From Candidatus Daviesbacteria bacterium (lineage in GTDB: Bacteria > Patescibacteriota > Microgenomatia > Daviesbacterales > UBA10151): a DNA stretch of 64,000 nucleotides. A program made the position numbers and the translations under genes. The DNA lies in assembly GCA_016186955.1 (NCBI GenBank), contig JACPKP010000004.1:71288-135287 (forward strand), given 5' to 3'. A model generated the notes under the pieces. The model saw only the letters and a list, made by a program, of their open reading frames with translations, ran no database searches and had not been told where the DNA came from. Of the stretch, positions 45,217 to 64,000 are shown piece after piece; within the stretch, counting starts at the first letter, position 1, and the number at the start of each line of letters is the position of its first letter.

Positions 45217-45222
45217 AAACTT

Positions 45223-48420: not shown

Positions 48421-48441
48421 AAGGAAGATTAGTAAATTAAA

Positions 48442-48563
48442 ATGATTAAATTATCAAGGTCTAAGTTAGAATTATTATTTGACTGTCCCCGTTGTTTCTG
48501 GTTATCTTGACTTTCGGGCTATAGTCCTGAGTCTTGCCGAAGGGTAATTTATGGTTTAAAGTG
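48442..48563 (+). repeat. copy 2 of the cassette-junction repeat (micro-ORF 48442-48510)
   Basis: Read from the sequence. Confidence 0.85.
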
Positions 48564-48568
48564 AGGTT

Positions 48569-48718
48569 ATGCTTAGCAAGAAAAATCCAGAGATTGAAAC
48601 GATAAAATCCAAACCTGAAAAAAGAGATATCCTGACGGAAATGTTTGAACACTTTGGGATTAAAGTAGTAGATGTAGGTTCTCAAATCCCAAAGGCCAAC
48701 AGGAAAAGAAAGGGATGA
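48569..48718 (+). CDS. conserved 49-aa small protein (paralog of 45223-45372)
   Basis: See the paralog entry above. Confidence 0.4.
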   Translation: MLSKKNPEIETIKSKPEKRDILTEMFEHFGIKVVDVGSQIPKANRKRKG

Positions 48719-48725: not shown

Positions 48726-49565
48726 ATGAAAAAGATAATTACCAAAGGAATAAAAGTGTATACGTTTCAGCAAAATGAAATAGATTACATCTCCCTCACT
48801 GATATTGCCAGGTACAAAGATAAAGAAAGAACAGACTATATCATCCAAAATTGGATGAGGAATAGAGAAACTATAGAGTTCTTGGGTATTTGGGAACAAA
48901 TCAATAATACAAATTTTAAACCCATCGAATTCGATGGGTTAAGAAAAAATGCAGGATTAAATAGTTTTTCACTTACTCCTAAAAGATGGGTCTCTTCTGT
49001 CAATGCCATTGGCATTATTGCAAAATCGGGCAGATATGGAGGTGGGACATTTGCACACAAAGATATTGCTTTTGAATTTGCTTCCTGGATTAGCGCTGAA
49101 TTTAAGCTTTACTTGATTAAAGAATTTCAACGACTCAAAGTTGAGGAAAACGAGAGGTTAATTTTAGGTTGGGATGTTAAGCGTCAGCTGACCAAAATTA
49201 ATTATCTTATCCATACAGATTCCATTAAGGAAAACTTAATCCCTCTGTCAATTACTAAAAATCAAGCCAAAGTCATTTATGCCTCGGAAGCAGATATCTT
49301 GAACGTGGCTTTGTTTGGTAAAACCGCAAAAGAATGGCGCGATGAAAATAAGGATAAAGATGGTAATATCCGTGATTATTGTGACGTTACACAATTAGTA
49401 GTTTTGGCTAATCTTGAAGGTATTAATGCCGAGCTAATTCGTCAAGGCTTGCCTCAATCTAAGAGATTAGTTCAACTAAACCAGATCGCTATCTCCCAAA
49501 TGCAATCTTTACTTGGTAATGCCTCAATAAGCAAAGCTTTTCTACGAATAAAGAAATTAAAATAA
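48726..49565 (+). CDS. KilA-N domain protein
   Basis: 'ISLTDIARYKD...NWMRNRETIEFLGIWE...GGTFAHKDIAFEFASWISAEFKLYLIKEFQRL'. Confidence 0.75.
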   Translation: MKKIITKGIKVYTFQQNEIDYISLTDIARYKDKERTDYIIQNWMRNRETIEFLGIWEQINNTNFKPIEFDGLRKNAGLNSFSLTPKRWVSSVNAIGIIAKSGRYGGGTFAHKDIAFEFASWISAEFKLYLIKEFQRLKVEENERLILGWDVKRQLTKINYLIHTDSIKENLIPLSITKNQAKVIYASEADILNVALFGKTAKEWRDENKDKDGNIRDYCDVTQLVVLANLEGINAELIRQGLPQSKRLVQLNQIAISQMQSLLGNASISKAFLRIKKLK

Positions 49566-49686
49566 ATGATTAAATTATCGAGGGCTAAATTAGAATTACT
49601 TTTTGAATATCCCCGTTGTTTCTGGTTATCTTGACTTTCGGGCTATAGTCCTGAGTCTTGCCGAAGGGTAATTTATGGTTTAGAGT
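49566..49686 (+). repeat. copy 3 of the cassette-junction repeat (micro-ORF 49566-49634). It starts immediately after the KilA-N stop codon.
   Basis: Read from the sequence. Confidence 0.85.
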
Positions 49687-49695
49687 AGAATTTAT

Positions 49696-50727
49696 ATGAA
49701 AAAAGGCAGACAAATTATTAAACAAAATAGCTTCACCGAGTTTTTGCTTTATACAACGCCAAATGGAAAAGTAAAGGTAGAGATATTTCTTCATAATGAA
49801 AATATCTGGTTAACTCAATCTAAAATAGCAGAGCTTTTTGGAGTGCAGAGGCCGGCAATTACCAAGCATCTAAAAAACATATTTGAGACTATGGAGTTGA
49901 ACGAGAAATCAGTTAGTTCCATTTTGGAACATACTGCCAAAGACGGTAAGAAGTACAAAACCCTATTCTATAACCTTGATGCGATTATTTCGGTTGGATA
50001 CAGAATAAACAGCTCTCAAGCAACGCAGTTCCGTATTTGGGCAACAGAAAGACTTAAAGAATACATAATTAAAGGATTTACCATGGATGATGAAAGACTC
50101 AGGGATCCCTACAATATCTTTGGAAAAGATTATTTTGAAGAACAACTTGCCCGAATAAGGGATATACGTTCAAGCGAAAGGCGTATGTACCAGAAGATCA
50201 CTGATATTTACGCACAATGCAGCGCTGATTACGATCCAAATGAAGAAATTACCAGGCAATTTTTTGCGACAGTGCAAAACAAACTCCATTTTGCGATTAC
50301 CAATAAAACTGCCGCAGAGATAATACACGAAAGAGTAGATAGCGCCAAACCATATATGGGGCTCACTGTTTGGAAAAATTCTCCAAAAGGTGCTATTCGG
50401 GAATCCGATGTCATTATTGCCAAAAACTATCTTAATGAAAAAGAACTGGATCATTTAAATAGAATTGTTACCATGTATCTTGATTATGCAGAAATGCAAG
50501 CCGAGCGTGGGATTGTCATGTATATGAAGGACTGGGTAGCAAAGCTGGACGCCTTTCTTAAATTTAATGAGCAACAAATACTTAGTGACACTGGACTCAT
50601 AAGCCACGAGGTTGCAGAATCTCTGGCCTTGAAAGAATTTGAAAAATATCGCAGGGAGCGGGACAAAAACTACATATCAGATTTTGACCGCGAAATGAAA
50701 AAACTTTTGAAGAGAGCAAGGAAATAA
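49696..50727 (+). CDS. RhuM-family protein
   Basis: 'YNLDAIISVGYRINSSQATQFRIWATERLKEYIIKGFTMDDERL' is the hallmark RhuM block. Confidence 0.85.
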   Translation: MKKGRQIIKQNSFTEFLLYTTPNGKVKVEIFLHNENIWLTQSKIAELFGVQRPAITKHLKNIFETMELNEKSVSSILEHTAKDGKKYKTLFYNLDAIISVGYRINSSQATQFRIWATERLKEYIIKGFTMDDERLRDPYNIFGKDYFEEQLARIRDIRSSERRMYQKITDIYAQCSADYDPNEEITRQFFATVQNKLHFAITNKTAAEIIHERVDSAKPYMGLTVWKNSPKGAIRESDVIIAKNYLNEKELDHLNRIVTMYLDYAEMQAERGIVMYMKDWVAKLDAFLKFNEQQILSDTGLISHEVAESLALKEFEKYRRERDKNYISDFDREMKKLLKRARK

Positions 50728-50787
50728 ATGATTAAATTATCGAGGTCTAAATTAGACTTACTTTTTGAATGTCCCCGTTGTTTCTGG
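50728..50787 (+). repeat. copy 4 (truncated) of the cassette-junction repeat. It starts immediately after the RhuM stop codon and diverges into GC-rich sequence.
   Basis: Read from the sequence. Confidence 0.8.
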
Positions 50788-50902
50788 GAGCGGGTGAGGG
50801 GAGTAACAACCTTTCGTTTCGCGAAAGAACGTTGCCCCGATAAATCGGGGTCGAACAGCTTTGCACTCCGTGCTGCGCAGCCTAACTCTCCAACCACCCT
50901 TT

Positions 50903-50935
50903 CAAACAGAAAAACTGGCCACAAGGACCAGTTTT
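50903..50935 (+). terminator. rho-independent terminator
   Basis: 'aaaaACTGGccacaaggaCCAGTtttttg' is a hairpin followed by a T6 run. Confidence 0.55.
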
Positions 50936-51158
50936 TTGTTCGAGAGCGGGTAATGACAATCTGTTCGAACTTTATTTAAAAACCTTTAATGGTTTGATGC
51001 AATGTTTTAGACCCTACCCTCAGGTTTATTCTTTTTGATGCTTGATGTGTTTTTAAACTTAAGGCCTTCTACAAAATCCTCTAATACTGTCGTTAATCTG
51101 GTTAAAAATTAATCCATATTTTCTGACATTAGATTATCTGTGACGGTTACTTTATGTT

Positions 51159-51362
51159 TCATGAACCAAAAAGAAAATGCCACATCTTTTCTACAAGAAA
51201 CCAACCAAAAAACCCTGCAATAACATATAATGGGAACCGCTTAAACTCTCCTAATATCTCTTTAATCTCGTTTAATACACCATTCTGGTAAGATATTTGC
51301 TCACTAAGTGTTTCCAATTGTTCTTCTAAATTTTCTAAGCTTTTTTTATCCATTTTTAACAT
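51159..51362 (-). CDS. hypothetical small membrane protein
   Basis: 67-aa ORF with a C-terminal TM segment. Confidence 0.3.
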   Translation of the reverse strand: MLKMDKKSLENLEEQLETLSEQISYQNGVLNEIKEILGEFKRFPLYVIAGFFGWFLVEKMWHFLFGS

Positions 51363-51595
51363 TCTACCATAAATTTGACTTTCGGGTAACCTATGGTATT
51401 ATTAAAATAATAATTACTTTGCTTCACAAAAAGCGGTAATTAGGTTTTAGATTTGCTGGGTCTTTAGAAGGAGCACAGGAATCTAGGAATCTGACGTTCA
51501 CTTAAGAAAAAGAAATGCGGTCGCAAGACAAACAGCTTTTTCACTTGGACTATTGCAGGTTCTTGGACTTTTGTGCTTTTTTAATGTAAAAAAAT

Positions 51596-52111
51596 ATGCA
51601 AACTTTTGAGTGGAAAACAGACAACCTAGACGAAATGGCCGTGAGAATGGCTCAAATTAGAAAAAATCAAACTGAAGAAACTGAGGCAATCAATTTTAAC
51701 AGGGACTCTAACCCCTTAAATGGTGGAGAAGCTGGTGGGGCGACAGAGGGGATGTGGAAGTACCTTAAAGAGGCACAGGGTGATAACAATAAGGAAAAGT
51801 TCATGGAAGCTAACTCGACTGGTGCTGCTATTGACCGTTTGAGGGAGCAAAAGACAGAGGGGAAAAAGGAAGATTCCAGGACCCAATGGCAAAAAGATCA
51901 AGATATGGCAAGGGAGTTGAGGAATCCTAACTGGAGAGCAGAGTACGAGGCTTCAAGAGGTTTTGATAGGGCCGAATATTTGGCAGCGTTGCCAGTAGTA
52001 CAGAATGGAAAAACATATCATAAAGACGGCAGGGTGTGGGCCCGACAGGATTGGGATGCACTAAAGGAAAAACATGGACAACCGAAGCATTATCAGGGAA
52101 AGGAGGGTTAA
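51596..52111 (+). CDS. hypothetical protein in the mobile/phage-like block
   Basis: 171-aa charged, helical ORF. Confidence 0.4.
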   Translation: MQTFEWKTDNLDEMAVRMAQIRKNQTEETEAINFNRDSNPLNGGEAGGATEGMWKYLKEAQGDNNKEKFMEANSTGAAIDRLREQKTEGKKEDSRTQWQKDQDMARELRNPNWRAEYEASRGFDRAEYLAALPVVQNGKTYHKDGRVWARQDWDALKEKHGQPKHYQGKEG

Positions 52112-52114
52112 TTT

Positions 52115-52300
52115 ATGAAGACAGCAAATGATAGATTTTTTGTACATAATATTGAGTTCGAGCCTGATGCCGGAGCAGAAATGCTCAAGAAACAATGGGC
52201 GATAGGTTTGGATACAAAGAATCATGGAAAATTAAGTGGAGAGCGGAAACGAAGTGCCTATGCTCAGAAAGCTAATAACTCTTTGACAGGAGAAAGATAA
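52115..52300 (+). CDS. hypothetical small protein
   Basis: 61-aa ORF 3 nt after the upstream stop. Confidence 0.3.
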   Translation: MKTANDRFFVHNIEFEPDAGAEMLKKQWAIGLDTKNHGKLSGERKRSAYAQKANNSLTGER

Positions 52301-52303
52301 GAT

Positions 52304-53368
52304 ATGGCTATACCATTGCAACTCTTACCTAATGTCTTTAATGCAGCCCAAAAAGCTGTAGGACAGCTATCCCAACCCGTATATCAGGTAGGGAAAACAG
52401 CACAACAATTTTTTAATCCAGGTGGAAATGCACCCCAGCGATTCGGTCCTGTTAACCCCCCAACAGATCAGGGTGATTATCTAGAGCAAGTCCCCTCAAT
52501 GAACATTCCAGAATTGGATCTAAGCCCATACATCGAGCAGCAACAGCGGGAAATGGAGCTGGCACAAGCCGGATATAGCGAAAATATTGCAGAAATAGGA
52601 TCGCAGACTGAAAAACAAAAGGGGCTAATCGAAGCAAACAAACAATCGGCCTTGGGTGATCTGGCCTCAAGCCAGGAACAATCACAAAACACTGCGGAAA
52701 GGGCAATCAATGAAGCAAGGAGGGCGCAGGCGGAATTATCTCAGGGATTATCAGCCAGATATGGTACAGGTGTATCAACAGGTCTTGGAGCTCAAGCGAT
52801 CCTGGGAGCTCAAACAGTCAAAAATATTGGGGAGACTCGCCAGAGCCTAGCTGCAAGATTGGGAGAAATTCAAAAAAGAAAAGAACAGGTAACAAACGAA
52901 GCTAACAGACTGGTACTAGATGCTGACCAACAAGCGGAAGTATTGAAACAAAGAGCTTCGGTTGCCTTGAAAGAGGGTTTGGCAGCAGCCAGTAGGTACA
53001 GACTAGAAGGAACTCGCGCCAGGCAGGATCTTATAAATTCATATATGAGCCAGTACCGGGATATTGTTGCAGGGGTCAACGCTAGAAATGCAGCTTTTAA
53101 GCAGGCTATCGCAAAACAATTAATGGCTAATGAAATTTCTCTGAATAAATATTACCAAACTACAGCTACTGCAAGAGATACTGTAGATTTAAATGATAGA
53201 TTTGCATTATATAAAGCTGGAAAATTGTCTGCCCCGGCAGTTGACCAGCTTGAGCAAGACGCACAACTCCCTTCGGGTTCTCTGATCAGATCAACAGAAA
53301 TAGACGAAAACGATCCTTTCGCTGGATTGAAGAAAATCTCACAGGTTGGGATTGGTAATCTTGCATAA
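52304..53368 (+). CDS. hypothetical coiled-coil protein (phage structural or scaffold-like, tentative)
   Basis: 354-aa Gln/Ala-rich helical sequence tightly packed with its neighbours. Confidence 0.4.
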   Translation: MAIPLQLLPNVFNAAQKAVGQLSQPVYQVGKTAQQFFNPGGNAPQRFGPVNPPTDQGDYLEQVPSMNIPELDLSPYIEQQQREMELAQAGYSENIAEIGSQTEKQKGLIEANKQSALGDLASSQEQSQNTAERAINEARRAQAELSQGLSARYGTGVSTGLGAQAILGAQTVKNIGETRQSLAARLGEIQKRKEQVTNEANRLVLDADQQAEVLKQRASVALKEGLAAASRYRLEGTRARQDLINSYMSQYRDIVAGVNARNAAFKQAIAKQLMANEISLNKYYQTTATARDTVDLNDRFALYKAGKLSAPAVDQLEQDAQLPSGSLIRSTEIDENDPFAGLKKISQVGIGNLA

Positions 53369-53374
53369 TTATGT

Positions 53375-56300
53375 ATGGCACTTCCCTTTTTATCGGATAT
53401 AGAACAAAAAATCACAGATGCTAGAGATGCAGCGCAACGCATTTTGAAGCAACCTCAAAATTTTATTCAAGGTTTTAAACCCTCCGCAATAAATACCCTA
53501 AACACAATTACAAAAGCTGTATCAAGCTATCTGCCACAGTATGCACCCCAAACCCAACAGGTTAAGCCACAACCATTGTCTGCAATTAGAAAACAAGCAG
53601 AGAATTATTTAAACGCAGGATTAAACACAGCACAAAATTATGGAAACTATTTAAAGACTGAGGGGAGAAGATTGACCAGCCCGGAGTTCTTCAAACCAAA
53701 ATTCACTTTCGCAGATGAAATTAAAAATCCAGTGCTTAATTTTGCTGCACAGATCCCTCAATCTATTTTAAACGCACCCATTAACACAGGCGAGGGATTA
53801 GTTAATCTACCCAGGTCAAAATCCCCACAACAGGTTATTTCTAACGCAGCCAAGATTGCAGACTTACCCCTAACTTTGGCTACTTTTGGAGCTGGGGGCA
53901 CTGCTTTAAATATTGGCAAGCAAGGATTAAAGTCATCAATTTTGAAAGGTGGGTTAGAAGGGTTAAAATACGGTGCTGCTTATGGTGGTTTGTCTGGTTT
54001 GCGGGAAGGCGAGAATCTTAATTTGGAGGAACAATTAAGAATAGGGGCTGAAAGGGCAGTATTGGGTGGTGTAGGAGGGGCGGTTGTAGGGGGAGTGGTA
54101 CCATTGGTAGGTTATGGAATTGATAGGGGCGGTAAATTTGTTGTAAAAATCATGGGAGATGAAAAGGGTTTTGTTAAAATTCCGGGTAAAAAACCACCTA
54201 TTTTAGCAAAAGCGATTGAAGACGCAATTAATGGTGATGATTTAGCAAAAGCCCAGGATATTATTGACAAGTTACCTGATAAAAACCCCTATAAAGCCCC
54301 GTTTCAAAGCACACTAAATGCTCATATTAAAAACCAAAGTACAGCAGGGAAATATTCATACAATATCAATTTAGACAGACTAAAGCTATCGCCAAAAGAA
54401 AAAAAGGTTTTCGACACAAGAATTTCTACTGCAAAAAACATACTAGAAAAAGCCAAGGGGCAGAAGCTAACGGATGAAGAAGTGATTAATGCTGCAAAAA
54501 CCTCAGAGATTTTACAAAACGTAACTTCTAGGGAAGACACAGTGAGAGCTAATGCTGCTATGCTTAGAGCCCGCCAAAATATGGTTGAGCTTGATAAAAA
54601 CCTTGATGTTTACATTAAAAAAGGAAATGTCTTAAAAGCCCGGACAACAATGGCCGATTTGGTTGACTCTCTTAGGGTTGTTTCTTCTGAAGCAGCGGAC
54701 AGAGGACGGAAATTACAGAGCTTGTCTATTGAAGCCGGAGATGAAAGTTTAAGAAGTCAGGTTTTAAGAAGTATTGCTCGAGTTGAAAATGATAGCAACA
54801 GGATAGCAAAAGAAGCCTTAAAAGTTAACTGGAATAATGCAAACTCGATTACTACTTTCTACCGGCAGTTTGTCAAACCCAGCACAGGGGAGATATTGGA
54901 TGAGTTTAGGTATAATAACATCCTCTCTAATCCTCTTACCCACGAACGGAACGCATTTTCAAATCTCATCCAGACCTTTATATCAAGACCACTAACCCTG
55001 GTAGTACAAGGTGATATAAGCGGTGCAGGCAGATATTACAAAGGTGCGTTTGGGAGTTTTCCTGATGCTATAAAAGCATTTCAGGACTCGTTTTTAGGGA
55101 AGGGATTGATTCAAAAGCCCGATTTATCGAGGTTATCGACCAAAAAAATACCGGGAGCCTTGACAATCCCCACCAGGGCAATGGAGGCCTCAGACAGATT
55201 TTTTCAAACAATAATCTCATCCGGTGAAAGAGCACGAGGTGTCAGCAGCAAAGAAGCGGAAAAGATAGCCCAGTATTCACTATTCAGATCCATTTTAGAC
55301 CCTTCAAATAGAACAGGGCAGGGAGTGTTATTATCAAAAATTGATAACGCTACATTGGGAATTTACCAACTGGGGGAGAAGGTGCCAGGTCTCAGATGGT
55401 TCGTTCCTTTTTTGCAAACTCCGATGAATGTCGCAAAACAGTGGCTTGAATATTCCCCAGGGGGTTTTGCGACAATCCCGGGAGCAGCCAAGCCAAAAGA
55501 ACAAATTGCAAAAGCCGTGATTGGATCGGTTATAACTGCGATGGGTGGTTGGTTAGCCAGTCAAGACAAAACAACCTGGTCAGCCCCGGTTGACCCTAAA
55601 GCAAAAGAGCTTTTCTATGCTTCAGGCAGGAAACCTTTTAGTATTAAGGTGGGTGATGCTTGGGTGCCAATGCCATTTTTAGGGGTGTACGCCTTTCCGG
55701 TTGCGTTAGCTGCTGCTGCAAAGTATTATCAGGATGAGTCCAGAACGGCATTGACTGATTCACAGATTGAGAGGTTGACCAAAGGGGTGTTTTCTATGAC
55801 TGAGTTTTTTAGTCAACAGACTTTTATGGAGGGGCTTGGTAATTTCGTTTCTCTGGTCAAAGGTGATAAAGATTATTCTCTGCCGGCAAACCTGGCATTT
55901 ACCGCACAACAGATAATACCCTTAAATGGGCTGGTAGGTTACATAAGCCGAATTTTAGATCCTATCTTCAGGAAAGCAGATGGTGAAGGTATTGGTGGTA
56001 AATTTATTGCTGGAGTCCAAAGGAATATTCCATTTCTCTCAAGTGGGCTTCCGGCTTATACAAACCCCTTGGGTGAGGAATCCAGACGGAACATTTCAAG
56101 CTATCTTGCGCCCTATGCTTTGGGAGTTCAAGACAAGAGGTTTGAACAACAGTATCAGGGTAGGGAGATCTTGCTACAAAGTAATGATGTTTTGAATAAA
56201 ATCGATGATGCGATAGTAAATGGGAGAGTACCAACAGGGGATCCGGCATTAGTTGAATTTAGGCAAGCGGAATACTATTACAAAAAAATATTAAACAGAG

Positions 56301-56578
56301 AAGCTTCCGTTGATGATCTAATCTCACAAGATAAAATTACCAAAGGGTTGGCAGAGAAAATACTAATTATTAGAAACCTTGATAAAAACTTGAAAATTTC
56401 CTCACAAGATAGGATGTTACCATTTTTTGAGCCAAAGATTAAAGCTGAACGGATATTACAAAGATTACAGGACTTTGAAAGCGGAAAAGGGAAGAAAGAA
56501 TATCTGGAAAAATTGATTAGGAATAAAATTATTGATCCTGAAACAGCTAGGCTTATATTAGAGCAAACTCCTCAGTGA
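53375..56578 (+). CDS. large (1067-aa) hypothetical protein with a Gly-rich segment. A tail/tape-measure-like or transfer-related role is speculative.
   Basis: 'GGVGGAVVGGVVPLVGYGIDRGG' is present. The ORF has a long uninterrupted reading frame and operon-like packing. Confidence 0.45.
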   Translation: MALPFLSDIEQKITDARDAAQRILKQPQNFIQGFKPSAINTLNTITKAVSSYLPQYAPQTQQVKPQPLSAIRKQAENYLNAGLNTAQNYGNYLKTEGRRLTSPEFFKPKFTFADEIKNPVLNFAAQIPQSILNAPINTGEGLVNLPRSKSPQQVISNAAKIADLPLTLATFGAGGTALNIGKQGLKSSILKGGLEGLKYGAAYGGLSGLREGENLNLEEQLRIGAERAVLGGVGGAVVGGVVPLVGYGIDRGGKFVVKIMGDEKGFVKIPGKKPPILAKAIEDAINGDDLAKAQDIIDKLPDKNPYKAPFQSTLNAHIKNQSTAGKYSYNINLDRLKLSPKEKKVFDTRISTAKNILEKAKGQKLTDEEVINAAKTSEILQNVTSREDTVRANAAMLRARQNMVELDKNLDVYIKKGNVLKARTTMADLVDSLRVVSSEAADRGRKLQSLSIEAGDESLRSQVLRSIARVENDSNRIAKEALKVNWNNANSITTFYRQFVKPSTGEILDEFRYNNILSNPLTHERNAFSNLIQTFISRPLTLVVQGDISGAGRYYKGAFGSFPDAIKAFQDSFLGKGLIQKPDLSRLSTKKIPGALTIPTRAMEASDRFFQTIISSGERARGVSSKEAEKIAQYSLFRSILDPSNRTGQGVLLSKIDNATLGIYQLGEKVPGLRWFVPFLQTPMNVAKQWLEYSPGGFATIPGAAKPKEQIAKAVIGSVITAMGGWLASQDKTTWSAPVDPKAKELFYASGRKPFSIKVGDAWVPMPFLGVYAFPVALAAAAKYYQDESRTALTDSQIERLTKGVFSMTEFFSQQTFMEGLGNFVSLVKGDKDYSLPANLAFTAQQIIPLNGLVGYISRILDPIFRKADGEGIGGKFIAGVQRNIPFLSSGLPAYTNPLGEESRRNISSYLAPYALGVQDKRFEQQYQGREILLQSNDVLNKIDDAIVNGRVPTGDPALVEFRQAEYYYKKILNREASVDDLISQDKITKGLAEKILIIRNLDKNLKISSQDRMLPFFEPKIKAERILQRLQDFESGKGKKEYLEKLIRNKIIDPETARLILEQTPQ

Positions 56579-56817
56579 GTGTTTGGGTAATCTTCGGGAC
56601 TTGAAGCCGAAATAGACGGTATTTTGGGCTTTGTATGGCCAGAAAACGGAAGAGATCCAGAGGGTAGGAATATATCTAAGGAAAAAAGTTATAATCCCCT
56701 ATTATTTTTTTCAATGATTAAATTGTTAGCTTCAAGGTAGGACCAAAAATCACCATAAAAAGATTTCTCAACATTTTTAGCTAGGAAATTAAAACGGGAG
56801 TAAAATAGCTTCAAAAA

Positions 56818-57723
56818 TCATTTCCCAACATTCCCGGGGTAAACAGATTTATAAATATCTTCTAATTCCTGGTTTGTGTGGTGCAAATATAACTCCGAAG
56901 TCTGTATGCTGCTATGCCCCAAGAATTTGCTCACATGATAGATGCTGATCCCGTGATTTAATAAATTTGTTGCATAGGAATGTCTTAAGCTATGCGGGGT
57001 TAAACTAACCCCCACTTTCTCACCAGCCTGCTTGACTAATCTTTCGATATGAGTAGGGGTTAAATCAAAAAGCTTATTACTATTTTTCTTTCTAGCTGCC
57101 AGATATTTTTTAATTAGGATGGCGGTTTCGGGGGAGAACTGGATTAACCGCGGTTTTGACCCCTTGCCAAGAATGGTTGTTCTTCCATTTTCAAGATCTG
57201 GTTTAGCTACCTCTAGGGAAACGAGCTCCGATATTCTCAAACCGGAGGTTTGGAGAAGAGACAAAATTGTTTTTAGCCGTAGACCCTTTTTATTTCTGAG
57301 GTCTAAAGAAGCAATCAATTTTTCAATATCTTCGGGGTTGGGGATCTCTTTATACATCCGAACCACCTTAGGCAACTCAATAGCTTCAGCGTCCAGACAA
57401 TCGATTTTCTGGAGCCTTAACCACTTTAAAAGCTGCCGGATTGCAATTAGCTTCAAAGATTGGGTTTTTGGGTTAAGTTTTTGATCTAGCATTATTACCC
57501 GGTAGTCTTCTATGGTTGCTAAGGTAATTTGCTGAATGGGTTTATCTGGACCTGTGAATTTACAGAAGTCTAAAAGGTGTTGTGAGTATTTTTTAACAGT
57601 CCCCAAGCTCTTTTTTTGTGTTAGTGTTAGACTTTTAACATAAACTTTTATTGCCTGGCTTAGGGTTGTTTGAGAATTTTGGTCAAAATTAGTATAATTC
57701 ATATAGTTGTCCGGTTCTGTCAT
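56818..57723 (-). CDS. tyrosine recombinase/integrase (XerD/phage-integrase family)
   Basis: C-terminal 'LRHSYATNLLNHGISIYHVSKFLGHSSIQTSELYLHH' carries the HxxR...Y catalytic motif. An N-terminal SAM-like domain is present. Confidence 0.85.
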   Translation of the reverse strand: MTEPDNYMNYTNFDQNSQTTLSQAIKVYVKSLTLTQKKSLGTVKKYSQHLLDFCKFTGPDKPIQQITLATIEDYRVIMLDQKLNPKTQSLKLIAIRQLLKWLRLQKIDCLDAEAIELPKVVRMYKEIPNPEDIEKLIASLDLRNKKGLRLKTILSLLQTSGLRISELVSLEVAKPDLENGRTTILGKGSKPRLIQFSPETAILIKKYLAARKKNSNKLFDLTPTHIERLVKQAGEKVGVSLTPHSLRHSYATNLLNHGISIYHVSKFLGHSSIQTSELYLHHTNQELEDIYKSVYPGNVGK

Positions 57724-57758
57724 TGCTTCAAAACTAAGGCAGGGCCGGATGGCTTTTT

Positions 57759-58190
57759 TTATTTACTTCTTAATTTTTTAATTTTCTCCTTCATAAACTC
57801 AAAGGATTTTTCAAACTCCTGTTCGCTAATATTCAGATTTCCAGTTAATGCTCCGAATTCGAACGCAATAAAATGTGAATAGCAAACGTTAAGGATATTG
57901 TATCTATAAATTTTTACTATATCTCCGGATTTACAAATAACACACTCACCATCTGCGGTATTTATTAAATCCTTAAGATAATTTATTTCGCGTTCCGAAA
58001 AAGGTTTGGCAATTTTCCAACGGGTTCTTCTATCTATTTTTCCGAATGGTATAATCCAACCTTTTTTGATTAAAGCCCTGGCAGTACCACCCTCATTTTT
58101 ACCATCCGCGGTAGCCCATCCCTTATCAGATTCAATAATTTTAAGTAATAATCGGGCTTGTGAAACCTCTAATCTAGCAAAATCTTCCAT
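57759..58190 (-). CDS. hypothetical protein
   Basis: 143-aa ORF. Confidence 0.4.
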   Translation of the reverse strand: MEDFARLEVSQARLLLKIIESDKGWATADGKNEGGTARALIKKGWIIPFGKIDRRTRWKIAKPFSEREINYLKDLINTADGECVICKSGDIVKIYRYNILNVCYSHFIAFEFGALTGNLNISEQEFEKSFEFMKEKIKKLRSK

Positions 58191-58370
58191 GCAATAAAAA
58201 CATTATATCATATCCACTACATTATGTCAAATAGTAGTTTAAAGTTCTAAAAAGGGCAAAAAATGAGAAAAATCAAGCTTTGCTACCCACAAAATCCAAG
58301 CAAATCAAGCTGTTAGTGATAAAAGGGATAATTTTAGGTTAACGGGATATTGTATTGACGAAAACTGAAT

Positions 58371-58724
58371 CTATAAATTAGAGTTAAGGATTATCTCCCC
58401 CTCTCTGATTGGTTTGATTATCTCTGAATGATTATCCCAATCTTTTTCATCGGGAATTCTATAAACATTCCCAGGATAAACAGTAATATAAATAACTTCT
58501 TGAGCCATGTTTTTTCCGTCGAATATCTTGTTCTCATCTCCTAATAATAGTGCGGGGCCGGTAAAAGCTGCTGATACTGTATTACCTAGATTTATTTCAT
58601 GAACGTCCCACTGATCAATGTATTTGTCTGCATTTAAATCCCTTACAGATAATTTTTGTTTTATATTTAAAATTTGTTTTGTATATTTTTCAGAATCCTT
58701 TAGTTTTATAGAAGGTGATGTCAT
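58371..58724 (-). CDS. hypothetical protein
   Basis: 117-aa ORF. Confidence 0.4.
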   Translation of the reverse strand: MTSPSIKLKDSEKYTKQILNIKQKLSVRDLNADKYIDQWDVHEINLGNTVSAAFTGPALLLGDENKIFDGKNMAQEVIYITVYPGNVYRIPDEKDWDNHSEIIKPIREGEIILNSNL

Positions 58725-58954
58725 AGCAGATAATGTACAGCTTTAGAAAATATTATGCAATATTTGGCAATATCTGAGGATTTCAAGAATTTAGGCACAA
58801 AATTATTAACTCAACATTAATATTGGGGGTGTTTGATACATTTTTATCTAGATATTTAGGGTGGATTTGACTTGACGTGCATTTGACGAATTTTGAAACC
58901 ATAGTATAATAATATCAAGGCCTGTGGAGAAAAACCAATGGTCACCCAAAAAGG

Positions 58955-59158
58955 GTGGCTTTTTTTGTGGCAAAAATGGATAAGATTTTTGAGCCTAATA
59001 GATTTTTTAAAAGAAAAGAGATTTGCGCGATTTTACGTATCAGTGAGGCCACTTTAGGAAAGATGCTGAAGGGAAAGATTAGAGCTGTCAGATTACCCGG
59101 TCAATATAGGGTACTCGGTTCGGAAATAAATTTGTTTTTAAAATCATTAAATCATTAA
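58955..59158 (+). CDS. AlpA/Xis-like HTH DNA-binding protein (putative excisionase/regulator)
   Basis: 'ICAILRISEATLGKMLKGKI' is an MerR/AlpA-type HTH in a 67-aa protein. Confidence 0.55.
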   Translation: MAFFVAKMDKIFEPNRFFKRKEICAILRISEATLGKMLKGKIRAVRLPGQYRVLGSEINLFLKSLNH

Positions 59159-59273
59159 AATTGACATAGTAAAAAACCATGATATAAAAAAAGGAGCAAC
59201 TTTTAAAACCCATAATTCTTCTTTTTTACTAGTGGGAAGAGAAATTTAGGTTAGGCATGAAACATCAAACAAA

Positions 59274-59525
59274 ATGAACAATAGTGCATCAGACAATTTT
59301 AAATCAGACGTTATCTCTCTTTGCGGGGCGCTGCTTGCTTCCGGTAAAATCCAACTCTCAGGATATATCAAACTCCCAAATGGTAAAACTGAATTTCATC
59401 TCTCCCCCAAACCTATTTGCGAAGAACTTTACAATCTATATTTAAACGATAAACTCATTCTCTCGGCCTCAGCCATAGCCAGAAAAGTAGCCGAATTAAA
59501 TGTTATCCGGAAAGGAAATTATTAA
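59274..59525 (+). CDS. hypothetical small protein
   Basis: 83-aa ORF. Confidence 0.3.
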   Translation: MNNSASDNFKSDVISLCGALLASGKIQLSGYIKLPNGKTEFHLSPKPICEELYNLYLNDKLILSASAIARKVAELNVIRKGNY

Positions 59526-59806
59526 TGGATTATCAGGCTTTTTTAACTCAGTTTGAGCAAGAAGAGGAAAACAGGAGAGTAGCCCAACTCCAAAAGTTAA
59601 ATGAATCTTTAAAACTTCTGCCTGTAAGAAATGAATTACACGAGCAAGTAGAAAGTTTTATTAAATTCTTGGGTTTAGATAATGAGTGGTTTTGTTTAAG
59701 CAGGTTTGAAAAGGATCAGGAAAGACAAAAACTAGCAGCTCATATTTCAAATTTTTATTCTTTGAGGGGAGATTTAATAGCGGATGAATTAGAGGGGATA
59801 GTATGA
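59525..59806 (+). CDS. hypothetical small protein
   Basis: 93-aa ORF, overlap-coupled to its neighbours. Confidence 0.3.
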   Translation: MDYQAFLTQFEQEEENRRVAQLQKLNESLKLLPVRNELHEQVESFIKFLGLDNEWFCLSRFEKDQERQKLAAHISNFYSLRGDLIADELEGIV

Positions 59807-61362
59807 ATTCAGAGGAAGTTTTTAAAACTGAAAATTGTGAGGAAAGAGATACAGAAAGATTTACCGATACCTCCAATGCTGAAAAAATAAACCAGGTTTT
59901 TGGTAACAAAATCAGATATGACCATAGGAGGAAAAGGTGGCTGGTTTGGAAAGATCACAGATGGCAACCTGATGTTGATGGAGCAATTAATCGGATGGCG
60001 ATTGATGCTTCGAGGGTTAGATATCAAGCTGCAACCGAAATTTCAGATTTAAACCAAAGGACTATTGCTTCTAAATGGGCTATTCAATCTGAAAGCAGAT
60101 TAAGGTTGGATGCTGCAACCAGTATTGCCAAAAACCTATTACCCATTGCTGATTCTGGTGAAAACTGGGATTCAGACCCAATGTTGTTATCTTGTTTAAA
60201 TGGCATTGTTGATTTGAGGACTGGGAAAATTAGAAAAGGTTTGCCGGGAGATAGAATAACAATGGTAACAGGCGGAAAATATGACCCTGATGCTGATTGC
60301 CCTCTTTGGAAGAAATTTATCTCTGAGGTTTTTGAAGATAACCAGGATTTGATTAATTACGTTAAAAAAGCCCTAGGATATAGCCTGACCGGGGAAATGA
60401 AGGAACAAGCGGTTTTCTTTTGTTTTGGGGTGGGTTCCAACGGTAAGAGTGTTTTGTTTTCGACAATAAGGGAAATTTTAGGGGATTATGCTTATAACGC
60501 TCCCGCCACCCTCTTTCAAAGAAATACAATGGCCACCTCTAGCAATGATGTGGCATCTACCGAATTTAAGCGGTTTATAATGTCTGCGGAGATTTTATCC
60601 TCCACTAAGATTAACGAACTTCGGTTAAAAAAATGGTCAGGTGGTGACCAGGAGACCGCCAGATACCTTTATTCAGAGTATTTTTCGTTCTATCCTGCTT
60701 GTAAAATATGGCTTTTTGTGAACCATAAACCCCAAGTGGAGGATGATTCTTTTGGATTTTGGAGAAGAGTTAGGTTAATTCCATTTAATAGGGTGTTTTC
60801 GGAAAGCGAACAAGACAAAGATTTAACCAAAAAGCTGAAAAATGAACTATCAGGAATTTTAAATTGGTTAATTGAGGGGTGTTTGCTATGGCAGGCCGAG
60901 GGTCTGCAACCATTACCCGCGATAATTGAAGGTGCAACCAAGAGTTACCAGGCTGAAAATGATGTTCTGGCTGAATTTCTATTTGATTGTATTGAAGAGA
61001 CTGAGAATGACTCTCAAGCAATGGCGGTTTTTAAAAAATATAAAGAATGGGCGGAGATGCAGGGATTACAAGGGAAGGATACTTTAACCAATACTTCATT
61101 CGGGAGACGGATGAGTGATAAGTTTCCCAAGAGAATGGTTGATGGGCGGGTTTTTTATCGGGGAATTTCCATAAAAGGCGGTTTTAGTAGAGGGTTTGCC
61201 GTGCCTGAAGTGATAGTTGACCCCCATTTTCATAAAAGTCCCCTTATAAAAACTCGTATAAATAGTTTAGTGAAAACGACCTCAAACCCTCTACCTAGGC
61301 ACGAAAACCCTCTACCTACCAAAAGCGCCCAAATACCGCCAGGGTTACAAGGAATTTTATGA
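59803..61362 (+). CDS. phage/plasmid primase, P4-family C-terminal domain protein (D5_N plus P-loop NTPase)
   Basis: 'KALGYSLTGEMKEQAVFFCFGVGSNGKSVLFSTIREILGDYAY' is Walker A in the D5/P4 primase-helicase context. Confidence 0.75.
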   Translation: MNSEEVFKTENCEERDTERFTDTSNAEKINQVFGNKIRYDHRRKRWLVWKDHRWQPDVDGAINRMAIDASRVRYQAATEISDLNQRTIASKWAIQSESRLRLDAATSIAKNLLPIADSGENWDSDPMLLSCLNGIVDLRTGKIRKGLPGDRITMVTGGKYDPDADCPLWKKFISEVFEDNQDLINYVKKALGYSLTGEMKEQAVFFCFGVGSNGKSVLFSTIREILGDYAYNAPATLFQRNTMATSSNDVASTEFKRFIMSAEILSSTKINELRLKKWSGGDQETARYLYSEYFSFYPACKIWLFVNHKPQVEDDSFGFWRRVRLIPFNRVFSESEQDKDLTKKLKNELSGILNWLIEGCLLWQAEGLQPLPAIIEGATKSYQAENDVLAEFLFDCIEETENDSQAMAVFKKYKEWAEMQGLQGKDTLTNTSFGRRMSDKFPKRMVDGRVFYRGISIKGGFSRGFAVPEVIVDPHFHKSPLIKTRINSLVKTTSNPLPRHENPLPTKSAQIPPGLQGIL

Positions 61363-61799
61363 ATAAAAAAGAACTTATTGAACAATATCTAAAGCTCGGG
61401 TTATGGTGGGTTCTTTATGAGAACGATTTTAGGGAATTTCCCCAAAATGTTCATGATCAAGCATTAGCCAAGCTTGAAGAGACTGAAACAAAACTTAAGG
61501 AAATAGGGATAACAGATATAGCAATAATCGCATTAAATGACCATGTTCAAAGAATCAAAAACTCCAAGATAGGGGATCTCAAACCAAGCGAGCAACTTTT
61601 CCTTTGCAAGGTAATTTTCGGTAATGATTGCGCAGAGGCTAAAACAGATAATATTGAGAAAAAAATGCTTCAGCTAGAAGCAGTTAGAGTTGGACCAAAA
61701 GAACCAACTCCAGGTTTTGGTGGGATGCACTGGACGGAGTTTGCCGACAAGCTTTCAGATTATCATTTCAATAAAGTGAAAAAATCAGAGGGATTATGA
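61359..61799 (+). CDS. hypothetical protein
   Basis: 146-aa ORF overlapping the primase stop. Confidence 0.35.
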   Translation: MNKKELIEQYLKLGLWWVLYENDFREFPQNVHDQALAKLEETETKLKEIGITDIAIIALNDHVQRIKNSKIGDLKPSEQLFLCKVIFGNDCAEAKTDNIEKKMLQLEAVRVGPKEPTPGFGGMHWTEFADKLSDYHFNKVKKSEGL

Positions 61800-62051
61800 A
61801 TAGACTAATTGAAGGTTGTGTGTTCCTGCTATTGTTTATTGGGTTTTTAGTAAGACCAGTGTTTTGAAAGGATTTGAAAAATGGATCGCAAAAAAAAAGA
61901 AATATTTGTCGCGTTGGAGGAATTTAGGAGGCTAACAGGCTGGAAAATACCAGACGATCTTAAACTGGAAGTGTTAAAAGAAAGGTTTAAAGCAATAGCA
62001 AAAAAATATGAAAAAAATTAGAACTGCTATAGGTTGTAATATTTGCAATAG

Positions 62052-62369
62052 ATGTGGGATATCAAAAAAAAGGTTTCCTGGTATCCAAATGACTGCGAAC
62101 CGCACTCAAGACATCTGGTTTGTATTGATTGCCAATCCAACCTAGCTGAAGTTCCGCAATTTGATAAAGAAACCTTTGAAGCTTCAGTAATGGAGGAGGC
62201 GGCCTTATATAGAAATAATATTTCATCGATAACCCAAACTCAAATAGACAAAATAACCAAAGCCTTAACCAATAAGCAAAAACTAAAACTGGCTTTAAAT
62301 GAATTTTACGAAGAAACAGATGGACTTTACCCAAAACTAAGATCCATGAAGGGAGGCGAAAAATGTTAG
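62052..62369 (+). CDS. hypothetical protein
   Basis: 105-aa ORF. Confidence 0.3.
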   Translation: MWDIKKKVSWYPNDCEPHSRHLVCIDCQSNLAEVPQFDKETFEASVMEEAALYRNNISSITQTQIDKITKALTNKQKLKLALNEFYEETDGLYPKLRSMKGGEKC

Positions 62370-62818
62370 CAAAACATGAGATAACACAGAGCAAAGCGGT
62401 TATTAAAGCCTTGGACTCTTTAGGCAAAGACGAAAAAGAGGCATTGGCAATACTTCAAAAAAGCTTTGGTATGACAGAAGTGCAAGCGCAAGAGACCTTC
62501 TTTGACCCAGGCAAATGGCAGGAATGGAAACACCTGCAACAAAAAAAACTCGATATAAAAGATCTGCAAATGGTTTCAAAGGTTCAAGATGCTATTAATG
62601 CCAAATTAGACTCAGGTTCCGGTGCTCAAGCAAAGGAGCTTTACATATTGCTAGCTACACTGCGCGATAAGGTTTTTGGTGCAAATAAACCTGGAGGTCA
62701 TAGTTTCCTGGTTGGTGAAAAAATAACTGTAAACATGGGTTGGAAGTTTACCCCTCAACCAAGTCCAAATAAAAAGCTTGATGAGAGAATACTAAATGGG
62801 GAAGTTATTGAAGGTTAG
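62363..62818 (+). CDS. hypothetical protein
   Basis: 151-aa ORF. Confidence 0.35.
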   Translation: MLAKHEITQSKAVIKALDSLGKDEKEALAILQKSFGMTEVQAQETFFDPGKWQEWKHLQQKKLDIKDLQMVSKVQDAINAKLDSGSGAQAKELYILLATLRDKVFGANKPGGHSFLVGEKITVNMGWKFTPQPSPNKKLDERILNGEVIEG

Positions 62819-63924
62819 GGATGAGCTTTGATTTTAGGGATGAAGTATAAGCTGTTGGATGAATTGTTGATTTAGGCTGAATTTTAGGTTTGGTTTTAGG
62901 CTTATATGAACGTAAATTGCACTTTAAAAAACGTCTGTGTGTACGCACGCGGGGAAGCTAAAAATAACCCCAAAATTAGGTACAAAAGCACTTTAAAAAG
63001 TTAAATATTTCAGTGAATATTTAGTTAATTTGAGCCTAGTAGGTCGTAGAGTGCATACTCTACGACACAATTCAGGCACAATGTATATTTAATTATGCTA
63101 ATCAATCCTATAATATTAAATATTTACAGTTATTGGGATATATTCTGGCTTGAGATTATTCGGTACTATCCCCAGCTTAGTTCTGGTAATTCGTGGTCAG
63201 TACGCTTTGAAAGCTGGATATGCTGAAAGGGAAGGGTAAGCTTAGAACCCAAACCCTTCTCTTAAGGCTAAAATCCGGAGATGCAAATAATTAAAAATAG
63301 ATATTTTAAAGTATGGGGTGGGTATTCCAGCTAGGGTAACAGATAAAAGCTTGGGACCGAAGAAAAAAAATCAATCCCGCCAGAAAAAGGGATGGTTAAC
63401 CAATGAACCTTGTCGGGATTGGGTATAGCTATATAACTCATTTCTAAAGCACATTAAATATTTTTTTAAAAATTAAAAAGGGATGTTACAAAAATAACAT
63501 CCCTAACAAAAATATTAAATATTTGTGCCTAAAAAACTTTACTTGAAAACGAGCGACAAAATGTTGTGGGTTGTGCCTAAGAACACTACTATTTTACGCA
63601 CAAAAGTTTAGTGGTATGACCCATAGGTCATCTAAAAAAGATGGATAATCTATTTAGCTTATTATATCAATCTAAACTAGAAATGCTCTAAACAAACCTC
63701 ATTTTTTAGAGGCGTACAGGGGCTTGTAGCAAGAATATTTACTATTTTGAGGCTAATTATTTAAAAATGTTAGGGATTTATTAAAAAGCTGGGGTATGTA
63801 TATTTACCAGACGGCACAGGCACAAACTTAAAGCAAAAATGCCTCTAAAACGGCTAGAAAGGTGGTAAGAGGACTAACGTCCCTAGAAAAAAATTAAACC
63901 AATAGAAAGGAAGGTGAGATTTTA

Positions 63925-64000
63925 TGGAAGAAGACAAAACAAAGCAAATTGTACAACCAGAAAATCCGGAGTTCATTAAAAATGACTTGGATCAGAAAGA
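63925..64000 (+). CDS. hypothetical protein, 3'-partial at the window edge
   Basis: RBS 'aaggaaggtgag' followed by ATG and an open frame to the window end (MEEDKTKQIVQPENPEF...). Confidence 0.3.

Follow-up and report, generated by a model that had tools for sequence, protein, structure and literature searches.

A probable phage-derived integrative element with its own large serine recombinase, placed at a tRNA-Gly(UCC) gene of a Candidatus Daviesbacteria chromosome

Phage-derived islands integrated at tRNA genes are a familiar class of mobile DNA, and the mobile elements and phages of the candidate phyla radiation (CPR; Patescibacteria) are poorly characterised. Here we describe an island of this broad class in a 64,000-nt stretch of Candidatus Daviesbacteria DNA (contig JACPKP010000004.1; the whole stretch is called the window, and positions are counted from its first letter), where it provides a precisely bounded example beside a defence-gene island. 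Our preferred reading, which we hold with a probability of roughly 0.65, is that of a single, phage-derived, non-autonomous integrative element of about 15.7 kb, integrated at tRNA-Gly(UCC) by a large serine recombinase (LSR), and being either what deletions have left of a temperate podophage or a helper-dependent, satellite-like island.

Among the closest described systems are the P4-like elements and the phage-inducible chromosomal islands (PICIs). They share with the locus a size of about 10-18 kb, short direct repeats at the integration site, a lack of capsid genes, a leftward integrase-regulator block which faces a rightward operon for an excisionase-type helix-turn-helix (HTH) protein and a P4-alpha-type (D5_N/superfamily 3, SF3) helicase, and, beyond the replication gene, non-coding DNA that is rich in repeats. 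In the PICI-type layout that we observe, the leftward block is made up of an integrase gene and open reading frames (ORFs) of 143 and 117 aa, the rightward one includes the genes for an HTH_17 protein and the helicase, and a repeat-bearing intergenic hub follows; the repressor and the origin are candidates. The locus differs from these systems in that none of its ORFs matches, in Pfam, PHROGs or NCBIfam, the helper-manipulation genes of P4 (sid, psu, delta, epsilon) or the PICI module for packaging and capsid interference (terS, ppi, cpm and the like), and in that P4 alpha joins a primase domain to a D5_N/SF3 helicase, of which only the C-terminal part is found here. The LSR on the attachment (att) junction, the podophage ejection genes and the CPR host are further differences. 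The absence of recognised genes for packaging or helper interaction speaks against a known type of satellite.

The tycheposons of marine picocyanobacteria, reportedly described by Hackl et al. in 2023, resemble the locus in tRNA-proximal integration with a partial tRNA repeat, in the pairing of a tyrosine or large serine recombinase with a PICI-like primase/helicase module, and in forming islands that look like stacks of older insertions with cargo and defence genes. The likeness is one of architecture; the host belongs to another phylum, and here the LSR frame enters the tRNA and virion ejection genes are present. With LSR prophages and excisable elements (phiC31, Bxb1, A118, SPbeta/SprA, skin/SpoIVCA, fdxN/XisF and the Ccr recombinases of SCCmec) the locus shares the Resolvase/Recombinase/zinc-ribbon architecture of the enzyme and the location of its gene at the very end of the element. 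Known LSRs mostly use protein-coding targets, exchange strands at a 2-bp crossover and have att sites (attB and attP) with little identity to each other, whereas here a tRNA 3′ end would be targeted, the identity block would measure 18 bp, and attP would lie within the recombinase gene. A gene-borne attP, with integration altering the encoded C-terminus, is also reported to characterise the integration-dependent immunity phages of the mycobacteriophage BPs type (Broussard et al., 2013); in BPs, however, the gene is that of a repressor and the integrase is of the tyrosine type, while here the affected gene is that of the serine integrase itself, and the consequence is predicted from sequence.

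The virion genes of the element find their closest counterpart in the T7 ejectosome (gp14, gp15 and gp16; internal virion proteins B, C and D), with which they share the gene order small, medium, very large, as well as a distant similarity of the 1067-aa product to internal virion protein D and phrog_6651 and a predicted all-helical fold. They differ from it in the much smaller size of the gp14/gp15-class partners and in their isolation from any capsid or tail module; moreover, no lytic transglycosylase domain was detected in the 1067-aa protein, and it has neither a structure match nor a sequence match in the PDB.

Boundaries at tRNA-Gly and the large serine recombinase

The right end of the element was located on a 13.9-kb metagenome contig (L001), found by an exact-protein look-up of the helicase, which is also identical to HYW46_03070 of a Candidatus Daviesbacteria metagenome-assembled genome at NCBI. 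L001 matches window positions 52652-64000 with 7 mismatches in 11349 nt (99.94% identity) and extends 2.5 kb further; past the non-coding tract at the end of the window it encodes ORFs of 81, 60, 63 and 60 aa, followed by an LSR gene which runs off the contig end. All seven differences fall within 91 nt (53587-53677, codons 71-101 of the 1067-aa gene), and five of them are synonymous; the cluster looks like a small patch of recombination or strain variation. At least two samples yielded the element at about 100% identity, while from a third came a variant of its LSR end that is 95.5% identical.

Comparison of 50700-51600 with the right side revealed an 18-nt exact direct repeat, GGAGCGGGTGAGGGGAGT, at 50787 and at 66503 (window-equivalent), for which the chance expectation is 0.03. 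Read in reverse complement, it is a tRNA 3′ end, covering T-stem, acceptor stem and CC. The window and its extension together contain two copies of the tRNA-Gly 3′ end only, with no third, degraded tRNA fragment of the kind that tandem elements would leave. L001 closes with 30 nt that are found, unchanged, at the 3′ end of genes called tRNA-Gly(tcc) by ARAGORN in other metagenome loci: scanning with the 26-nt tRNA-Gly 3′ half yielded 58 loci, 7 of which continue exactly like L001, and in the five of these given to ARAGORN the program called tRNA-Gly(tcc) every time. The start of the left repeat, moreover, coincides exactly with the point at which the fourth copy of an upstream cassette repeat diverges from the other three. 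Because the repeat is an exact copy of the tRNA end, is present only twice and begins at this point of divergence, we take its copies as the predicted attL and attR (Table 1), and place the element between about 50787 and about 66520, with the 3′ end of a tRNA-Gly(UCC) gene just outside the window as its insertion point. The element is thereby bracketed by direct repeats of a tRNA 3′ end, as tRNA-site elements are, with 18 of 18 nt in agreement and the tRNA itself visible for 30 nt at this locus. The first-pass annotation had described an integrative element or prophage-satellite-like block at 51159-63900; an integrated, phage-related mobile element with a satellite- or PICI-like layout was indeed found, although within these wider boundaries. 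Its proposed test of mobility, that flanking direct repeats should exist and the arrangement should vary among relatives, came out in favour of a mobile element, as the repeats were found and the occupancy of tRNA-Gly differs between relatives.

Table 1. Features of the element in window coordinates; positions beyond 64000 are window equivalents read from contig L001.
Feature	Position	Strand	Basis or remark
Predicted attL	50787-50804		GGAGCGGGTGAGGGGAGT, 18-bp copy of the tRNA-Gly(UCC) 3′ end, reverse complement
Left-end non-coding region	50805-51595		structured segment, terminator-like hairpin, one small ORF
67-aa coiled-coil/transmembrane ORF	51159-51362	-	no family match
171-aa ORF	51596-52111	+	no family match; heads the virion set
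61-aa ORF	52115-52300	+	no family match
354-aa Q/A-rich coiled-coil protein	52304-53368	+	partner of the large internal virion protein
1067-aa predicted internal virion/ejection protein (T7 gp16 class, internal virion protein D)	53375-56578	+	PHROG, tblastn, synteny
Xer-like tyrosine recombinase, 301 aa	56818-57723	-	Phage_integrase 107.8 bits, SAM-like N-domain
143-aa ORF, candidate regulator	57759-58190	-	homologue next to the L012 integrase; no family match
Putative divergent promoter region	58202-58910		consensus scan and motif search only
117-aa ORF, candidate regulator	58371-58724	-	no family match
60-aa excisionase-family HTH protein (HTH_17), first gene of the rightward operon	58976-59158	+	PF12728
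83-aa and 93-aa ORFs	59274-59806	+	called as genes on contigs L001 and L002; no family match
D5_N + SF3 helicase + Pox_D5 C-domain protein	59803-61362	+	Pfam, PHROG, NCBIfam
146-aa ORF	61359-61799	+	47% identical to the post-helicase gene of L020 and L021; no family match
46-aa ORF	61881-62021	+	no family match
105-aa ORF	62052-62369	+	no family match
151-aa ORF	62363-62818	+	no family match
Internal intergenic hub, 1.1 kb	62819-63924		palindromes and clustered motifs
81-aa ORF, first of the LSR module	63925-64000, runs off the window	+	L001 gene calls
LSR	64964 to about 66565; seen on L001 12313-13880 (= 64964-66531)	+	domain matches
Predicted attR	about 66503-66520, on L001		partner 18-bp copy; tRNA-Gly(UCC) on the minus strand

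The serine recombinase has the domains expected of an LSR (Resolvase PF00239, 108 bits; Recombinase PF07508, 33.7 bits; Zn_ribbon_recom PF13408, 26.2 bits), with weak NCBIfam matches to CcrB and XisF, and 522 aa of it can be read on L001; a full length of about 533 aa, deduced from the homologue P0016 and the tRNA sequence, falls within the range of about 450-700 aa for such enzymes. Its frame crosses attR into the antisense strand of tRNA-Gly, and the C-terminal ...GAGEGSRTP is translated antisense tRNA. P0016 (533 aa, 74% identical) shares the antisense-tRNA peptide GAGEGSRTP...FYR and ends in ...GAGEGSRTPCVHFGKVTFYR. In locus L017, where the LSR is 58% identical, its last 21 codons overlap a tRNA-Gly(tcc) called by ARAGORN on the opposite strand, and a second LSR overlaps a tRNA-Pro in the same manner (the two genes lie at 2792-4377 and 12991-14366), while divergent LSRs of loci L034 and L041 enter the same tRNA-Gly in the same frame. 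Overlap at the DNA level was confirmed for tRNA-Gly at three further loci and for tRNA-Pro at one, and at least 44 of 120 LSR homologues (P0016-P0135) end in antisense T-arm tails of the form G-x-R-T-x, for example GAGEGDRTPYVHFGKVTFYR and GDPKGIRTPDSQDENLMS, which correspond to several different tRNAs. The site is variably occupied: among the 37 loci with this tRNA-Gly 3′ half in which the flank reaches 900 nt or more, an LSR ORF reads into the tRNA in 2, and the others have ordinary flanks. The sampled flanks of LSR relatives show no tyrosine recombinase; in the 10 kb upstream of P0016, none was seen, and a type I restriction-modification system and small ORFs are found there. In L017, the LSR gene is accompanied by counterparts of the 63-aa and the second 60-aa ORFs.

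Since the LSR gene spans the attR/tRNA junction both here and in its relatives, antisense tails are common in the family and occupancy of the site is variable, the LSR is the likely tRNA-site integrase, in place of the tyrosine recombinase to which this role had been ascribed by implication; the latter is probably not the enzyme that acts at the tRNA. More generally, CPR serine recombinases of a large family appear, from their sequences and those of the adjoining tRNA genes, to target tRNA 3′ ends, with their own frames running into the antisense tRNA. A shallow literature search returned no relevant description of tRNA-targeting LSRs in CPR.

According to the mechanism that we propose, the LSR would recombine attP, formed by the joined element ends, with the 3′ end of tRNA-Gly, and the 18-bp copy carried by the element would restore the tRNA. 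In the predicted attP, which is partly deduced, about 25 nt of spacer are flanked by the 13-nt arms of an imperfect inverted repeat; the junction would read ...CCTAATTTTGCATTT-GGAGCGGGTGAGGGGAGT-AACAACCTTTCGTTTCG..., and that of the predicted attB ...TGTCCCCGTTGTTTCTG-GGAGCGGGTGAGGGGAGT-CGGACCCCTGACGTT.... With attP inside the LSR gene, integration would exchange some 15 residues at the C-terminus of the enzyme, from ...GAGEGS-NNLSFRERTLPR in the excised state to ...GAGEGS-RTPDVHFGKVTFYR in the integrated one, again in part by deduction.

Several observations weigh against the reading of a single LSR-integrated element. The right boundary lies outside the window and is taken from L001, which ends 11 nt after the repeat, and with only 30 nt of tRNA seen the remainder of the gene at this locus is supplied from other loci. 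We found no same-species empty site among the 58 tRNA-Gly loci, nor any close relative of the island there, and scanning IMG/VR for the tRNA junction returned no circular junction for this species. The 18-bp identity block exceeds what an LSR needs, as these enzymes require only the 2-bp crossover and such a block is more typical of tyrosine integrases, which leaves the tyrosine recombinase some room as the tRNA-site enzyme; the presence of two recombinases in one element could also mean two fused elements. The promoters, the origin and the directionality factor are consensus or positional guesses, the last of these, which excision would need, being possibly the product of one of the conserved small ORFs that immediately precede the LSR gene. 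Finally, the flank to the left of attL is a cassette array and not ordinary host DNA, so that more than one simple insertion event must have shaped the site. Other searches were likewise negative: the cassette gene-start sequence had no match in IMG/VR, an exact look-up of the RhuM protein of the array, aimed at an empty site, returned no record, the helicase query yielded one 2-kb contig in a scan of GTDB genomes and nothing in IMG/VR, and the non-coding tract, the left end and the switch region showed no non-coding homology to the fetched loci.

As a separate observation, tRNA-Gly(UCC) lies 1.2-5 kb from a same-strand tRNA-Pro/tRNA-Leu pair in three metagenome loci (L025, L039 and L061). Together with L017, in which both tRNA-Gly and tRNA-Pro are overlapped by LSR genes, this may indicate that the tRNA-Gly/tRNA-Pro/tRNA-Leu genes are a multi-site integration hotspot.

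Predicted podophage ejection genes outside a capsid module

The genes at 51596-56578 are, judging from profile matches and synteny, that part of a podophage late operon which encodes the ejection proteins (T7 gp14-16 class). The 1067-aa protein matches phrog_6651, annotated as internal virion protein (E = 1.4e-19), and in tblastn the internal virion protein D of Autographiviridae phage ProddE (E = 9e-16), whose late operon has the order B, C, D; the similarity to gp16-like proteins is distant (21-27% identity), and the annotation in those phages is itself positional. Residues of about 310-950 are 45-57% identical to proteins on phage contigs of 33-45 kb, while the N-terminal third is variable and includes a Gly-rich hydrophobic segment. 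The closest homologue, on contig L081, is preceded by a 409-aa protein gene and lies between SU10_MCP and SU10_adaptor genes, together with TerL, probable portal and probable nozzle genes. The AlphaFold model is poor (mean predicted local distance difference test score, pLDDT, 53) and all-helical, and its low-TM matches in BFVD are internal-virion and polyvalent phage proteins. Tail, tape-measure and conjugation proteins, the families against which a check had been advised, were rejected as identities in view of phrog_6651, ProddE and the L081 synteny, all of which point to an internal virion protein. The label "Gly-rich", given to the whole protein in the first-pass annotation, applies to residues of about 150-270 only (22% Gly, against 7.9% overall).

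The 354-aa protein shows a weak similarity (E = 6e-5, 28% over 148 aa) to a 432-aa protein of phage contig L082, which sits directly upstream of a homologue of the large protein, and its position is held by proteins of 372-410 aa in L003, L006, L081 and L012. By position only, in comparison with ProddE, the 171-aa and 61-aa proteins may be analogues of the T7 gp14-class proteins.

None of the ORFs between 50805 and 66520 matches a terminase, portal, capsid or tail family in Pfam, PHROGs or NCBIfam, while the phage contigs L081, L006 and L003 carry such genes around the homologous pair. The element is not an autonomous tailed prophage and cannot build virions by itself. One possibility within our preferred reading, which we consider quite plausible though short of probable, is that a temperate SU10/T7-like podophage, once integrated at tRNA-Gly, lost its packaging, head and tail genes by deletion and is now a grounded, immobile remnant, whose ORFs would be intact merely because the decay is young. 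In relatives the 354/1067-aa pair is embedded in full structural modules (TerL, probable portal, SU10_MCP, adaptor, probable nozzle), whereas here it stands alone, and the IMG/VR locus L012, in which a split terminase directly precedes a pair of 397 and 966 aa, looks like another prophage eroded in a similar way. About 790 nt of gene-poor DNA separate attL from the first virion gene, and the neighbourhood is littered with defence genes that are truncated or orphaned. On the other hand, the large ORFs are all intact, including the 1067-aa gene and both recombinase genes, the att repeats are perfect, and the element was recovered from several samples at near-identity, with mostly synonymous differences in the 1067-aa gene. 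The intact ORFs, the perfect att repeats and the mostly synonymous nucleotide differences weigh against old decay.

The gene-poor left end has features of its own. The segment 50786-50935 folds unusually well as DNA (z -2.9 and -2.6 on the two strands), with hairpins CTTTCG...CGAAAG and CCCCGAT..ATCGGGG, and a terminator-like stem-loop at 50910-50936 is followed by a T-run to about 50940; a search of 42-64 kb against Rfam at E <= 1 yielded no match to this segment or any other.

Switch region, replication operon and intergenic hub

To the right of the virion genes, the element has the divergent organisation of a switch region. The tyrosine recombinase, in which the catalytic residues R-K-H-R-H-Y are visible by eye, is Xer-like in size and domains only: its best NCBIfam matches all fall below the equivalog cut-offs (XerA 193 vs 220, XerD 174 vs 330 and XerC 160 vs 335 bits), and it does not qualify as a Xer dimer recombinase, for which a dif-like 11-6-11 site would be expected; the candidate palindromic sites of the intergenic hub have arms of 9-10 bp. 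The integrase of L012 is 37% identical to it, and L012 also has a homologue of the 143-aa ORF and a 1067-like protein. Most likely the Xer-like enzyme would either resolve multimers or be a relic of an ancestral temperate podophage.

The region upstream contains sigma70-like promoter candidates in both directions, leftward at 58230-58202 (12/12 consensus matches, with an extended -10) and rightward at 58883-58910 (11/12 matches), which would drive the leftward regulator-recombinase unit and the rightward HTH_17-helicase replication operon, respectively. The motif TTGTGCCTAA has an exact copy at 58791 between them. The excisionase-family assignment of the first rightward gene rests on HTH_17 (33.1 bits vs a cut-off of 27, E = 6.8e-8), and is in agreement with the AlpA/Xis-like HTH protein reported earlier; the TIGR01764 "excise" model scores 19 bits, below its cut-off of 28.8. 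We also note a terminator-like hairpin at 58940-58960 (GGTCACCC-aaaaa-GGGTGGCT, followed by T7), between the rightward promoter candidate and the ATG at 58976, which may be an attenuator or an antitermination control point.

The coordinates of the virion ORFs, the convergent integrase gene and the P4-type gene given by the first-pass annotation proved correct, while its "P4-family primase" held only in part. The product of 59803-61362 scores 262 bits with TIGR01613 (cut-off 109) and 95 bits with D5_N, and matches DUF5906 and Pox_D5, but has no primase domain: PHROG primase profiles align to it from about position 316, in their C-terminal halves only, and the additional Prim-Pol domain (PF09250) found in many helicase homologues of 770-870 aa is absent. 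It is probably a replication initiator and helicase, as predicted from its domains, and the excised circle would be replicated by the operon that runs from HTH_17 to this helicase, transcribed from the promoter at about 58883-58910. Its closest short relatives, in loci L018 and L020 (59-61% identity), and another in L021, are flanked by both serine and tyrosine recombinases.

It could be argued that the element is a functional PICI-, P4- or tycheposon-like satellite, which would excise, replicate by means of its own helicase and origin, and rely for packaging on a helper podophage of the same host, the ejection proteins being its own contribution. The size of about 15.7 kb would suit such a satellite, as would the integrase-regulator block facing an xis-like/helicase operon with a repeat hub downstream, the precise att repeats at a tRNA, the intact ORFs, and the presence next to the helicase relatives in L018, L020 and L021 not only of both recombinase types but also of a pair of proteins of about 400 and about 1100 aa. 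We nevertheless consider a functional satellite unlikely: genes for packaging redirection, a small terminase, capsid-size control or helper sensing were not recognised in the three family databases, the large proteins of L018 and L020 have no detectable similarity to the 1067-aa protein, and no helper phage was identified. We know of no described satellite that carries only ejection proteins.

The pairs in L018 (6519-10928) and L020 (3381-8071), which consist of a protein of about 400 aa and one of 1067-1151 aa near the helicase homologues, gave one weak ART-PolyVal match. Their recurrence suggests that analogous "polyvalent/ejected protein" pairs travel with the helicase replication module.

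The intergenic hub that follows the operon is, as had been stated, free of ORFs of 60 aa or longer in 62820-63900. Its description as AT-rich is true only in a mild sense (GC 0.34, where the element has 0.38 and the backbone 0.41). Two palindromes, each unique in the window (0.00-0.01 expected) and with folding z of -5.6 and -4.4 and centres of 4-6 bp, stand out: a perfect hairpin with a 10-bp stem, which lies at 63043-63066 and not at 63041-63064 as first given, and GGGATGTTAcaaaaaTAACATCCC, with a 9-bp stem, at 63480-63503. The latter was among the earlier observations that were reproduced, along with three exact copies of ATTAAATATTT at 63115, 63453 and 63514, without any others in the 64 kb, and the inverted repeat caatcccg/cgggattg at 63372-63379 and 63414-63421. 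Further motifs cluster here, including five TTGTGCCTAA-like sites (the exact copy in the switch region being the sixth), 4 of the 11 copies of AAATATTT in the window and its extension, repeats of GTTAGGGAT, and two copies of GCACTTTAAAAA; no tandem array and no Rfam match was found in the hub. A comparable gap with palindromes of 11-12-bp arms lies upstream of the LSR module in L017. The hub is a candidate origin, operator or recombinase-site region, and would serve as an origin and/or operator region for the excised circle.

Of the two roles first proposed for this tract, origin or att site, only the former persists as a candidate. As an att site or an element end the hub was rejected, since it is internal to the element, and the suggested search for att repeats between the surroundings of the integrase gene and the right part of the element (56579-56830 against 58000-66531) yielded nothing longer than 9 nt. 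The same result bears on the proposal that a satellite-like unit with the tyrosine integrase (about 56.6-63.9 kb) is nested in, or fused with, an LSR island, the AT-rich tract being its att site or junction. Two unrelated recombinases, palindromes whose 9-10-bp arms and 4-6-bp centres resemble the core sites of tyrosine recombinases, the GC steps within the element (0.42 in the virion block, 0.35 in the recombinase block) and the gap that precedes the small-ORF and LSR module in P0016 and L017, which makes this module look separable, all speak for such a composite. Yet, besides the missing direct repeat of 10 nt or more, no inverted-repeat core is present next to the integrase gene and there is no third copy of the tRNA fragment, while the TTGTGCCTAA motif is common to the switch region and the hub, L012 ties this type of integrase to a 1067-like virion protein, which would lie outside the proposed sub-element, and L020 also unites the helicase with a serine and a tyrosine recombinase. 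We therefore judge a composite of two elements improbable, and retain the single LSR-integrated element.

Cassette array, chromosomal setting and significance

The window as a whole is chromosomal DNA, with uvrB, uvrA, uvrC, a thiolase gene and two tRNA genes. Its GC content falls from 0.41 to about 0.35-0.38 at about 42.8 kb and stays there to the window end; from 42.8 to 50.8 kb, the DNA of low GC is occupied by a defence-gene island with the genes for a 5′-truncated cyclase of a cyclic-oligonucleotide-based anti-phage signalling system (CBASS), a HEPN-like partner, an AAA_14/DUF4143 ATPase, an orphan HsdS, a KilA-N protein and RhuM. Within it, a 60-nt unit is found in four direct copies to the left of attL (45090-45225, 48436-48571, 49560-49695 and 50722-50787), encoding the start of a PD-(D/E)XK-nuclease-like protein (MIKLSRSKLELLFDCPRCFW; a weak match), with differences between copies that are mostly synonymous or conservative. 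In the first three copies, a conserved 73 nt extends the unit to 133 nt, at 87-94% identity, and each is followed by one gene or gene pair in the same orientation, namely the ATPase plus HsdS, KilA-N and RhuM. The KilA-N and RhuM genes each end at the ATG of the next copy, and the fourth copy abuts the tRNA-Gly fragment of attL. The repeats may be right-end/left-end junctions of small elements that were stacked in tandem at one site.

Same-orientation, single-gene cassettes separated by a 133-nt repeat are reminiscent of integrons, and the first-pass annotation had linked the array to the tyrosine integrase through a partial copy of the repeat beside its gene, at 56714-56737. A recombinase that serviced the upstream array, with this copy as its site, would also find some backing in the weak NCBIfam matches to integron integrases, although these are far under the cut-offs (79 vs 265 bits for TIGR02249, and 51 vs 435 bits). 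The partial copy, and with it the link to the integrase, is at chance level: in a window of this size, 0.13 matches like its 12-nt exact one, at 56713, are expected, and scattered identities raise the agreement to only 16 of 24 nt (67%). In addition, the 133-nt repeat does not form a hairpin (folding z of +0.6 to +0.8 on the two strands) and is not attC-like, and the recombinase is encoded 6 kb downstream of the array, in the wrong orientation, and is separated from it by attL. The identity of an integron was rejected on these grounds, and we regard such a relationship as barely credible.

Other observations concern the more distant neighbourhood. In the CBASS oligonucleotide cyclase gene (42978-44258), the frame stays open as far back as 42978 but offers no start codon, and alignment with the PADLOC model begins only at position 64; the HEPN-like gene (44268-45041) comes next, and the drop in GC begins just upstream of the cyclase gene, at about 42.8 kb. 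The uvrC region (16913-20118) looks odd in that a 446-aa ORF, which matches UvrC only partially and in two separate stretches, is overlapped at its start by a 622-aa ORF without an NCBIfam family.

While the broad class of the element is a familiar one, several of its traits are unusual: a serine integrase on a tRNA site with attP in its own gene, a second, Xer-like recombinase, and orphan ejection genes. It is tempting to speculate, though we consider this combination quite unlikely as a whole, that the element is a working satellite of CPR-infecting podophages that gives its own ejection proteins to helper capsids, that its tRNA-targeting LSR senses the integrated or free state through the swap of its C-terminus, and that antisense tails are the signature of serine integrases which are specific for tRNA genes and widespread in CPR. 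The most reusable observation is the family-wide overlap of LSR genes with antisense tRNA, which is unusual for serine integrases. If the interpretation given here is true, tRNA-specific serine integrases would be added to the integrase toolbox, and many odd C-terminal tails seen in CPR annotations would be explained.

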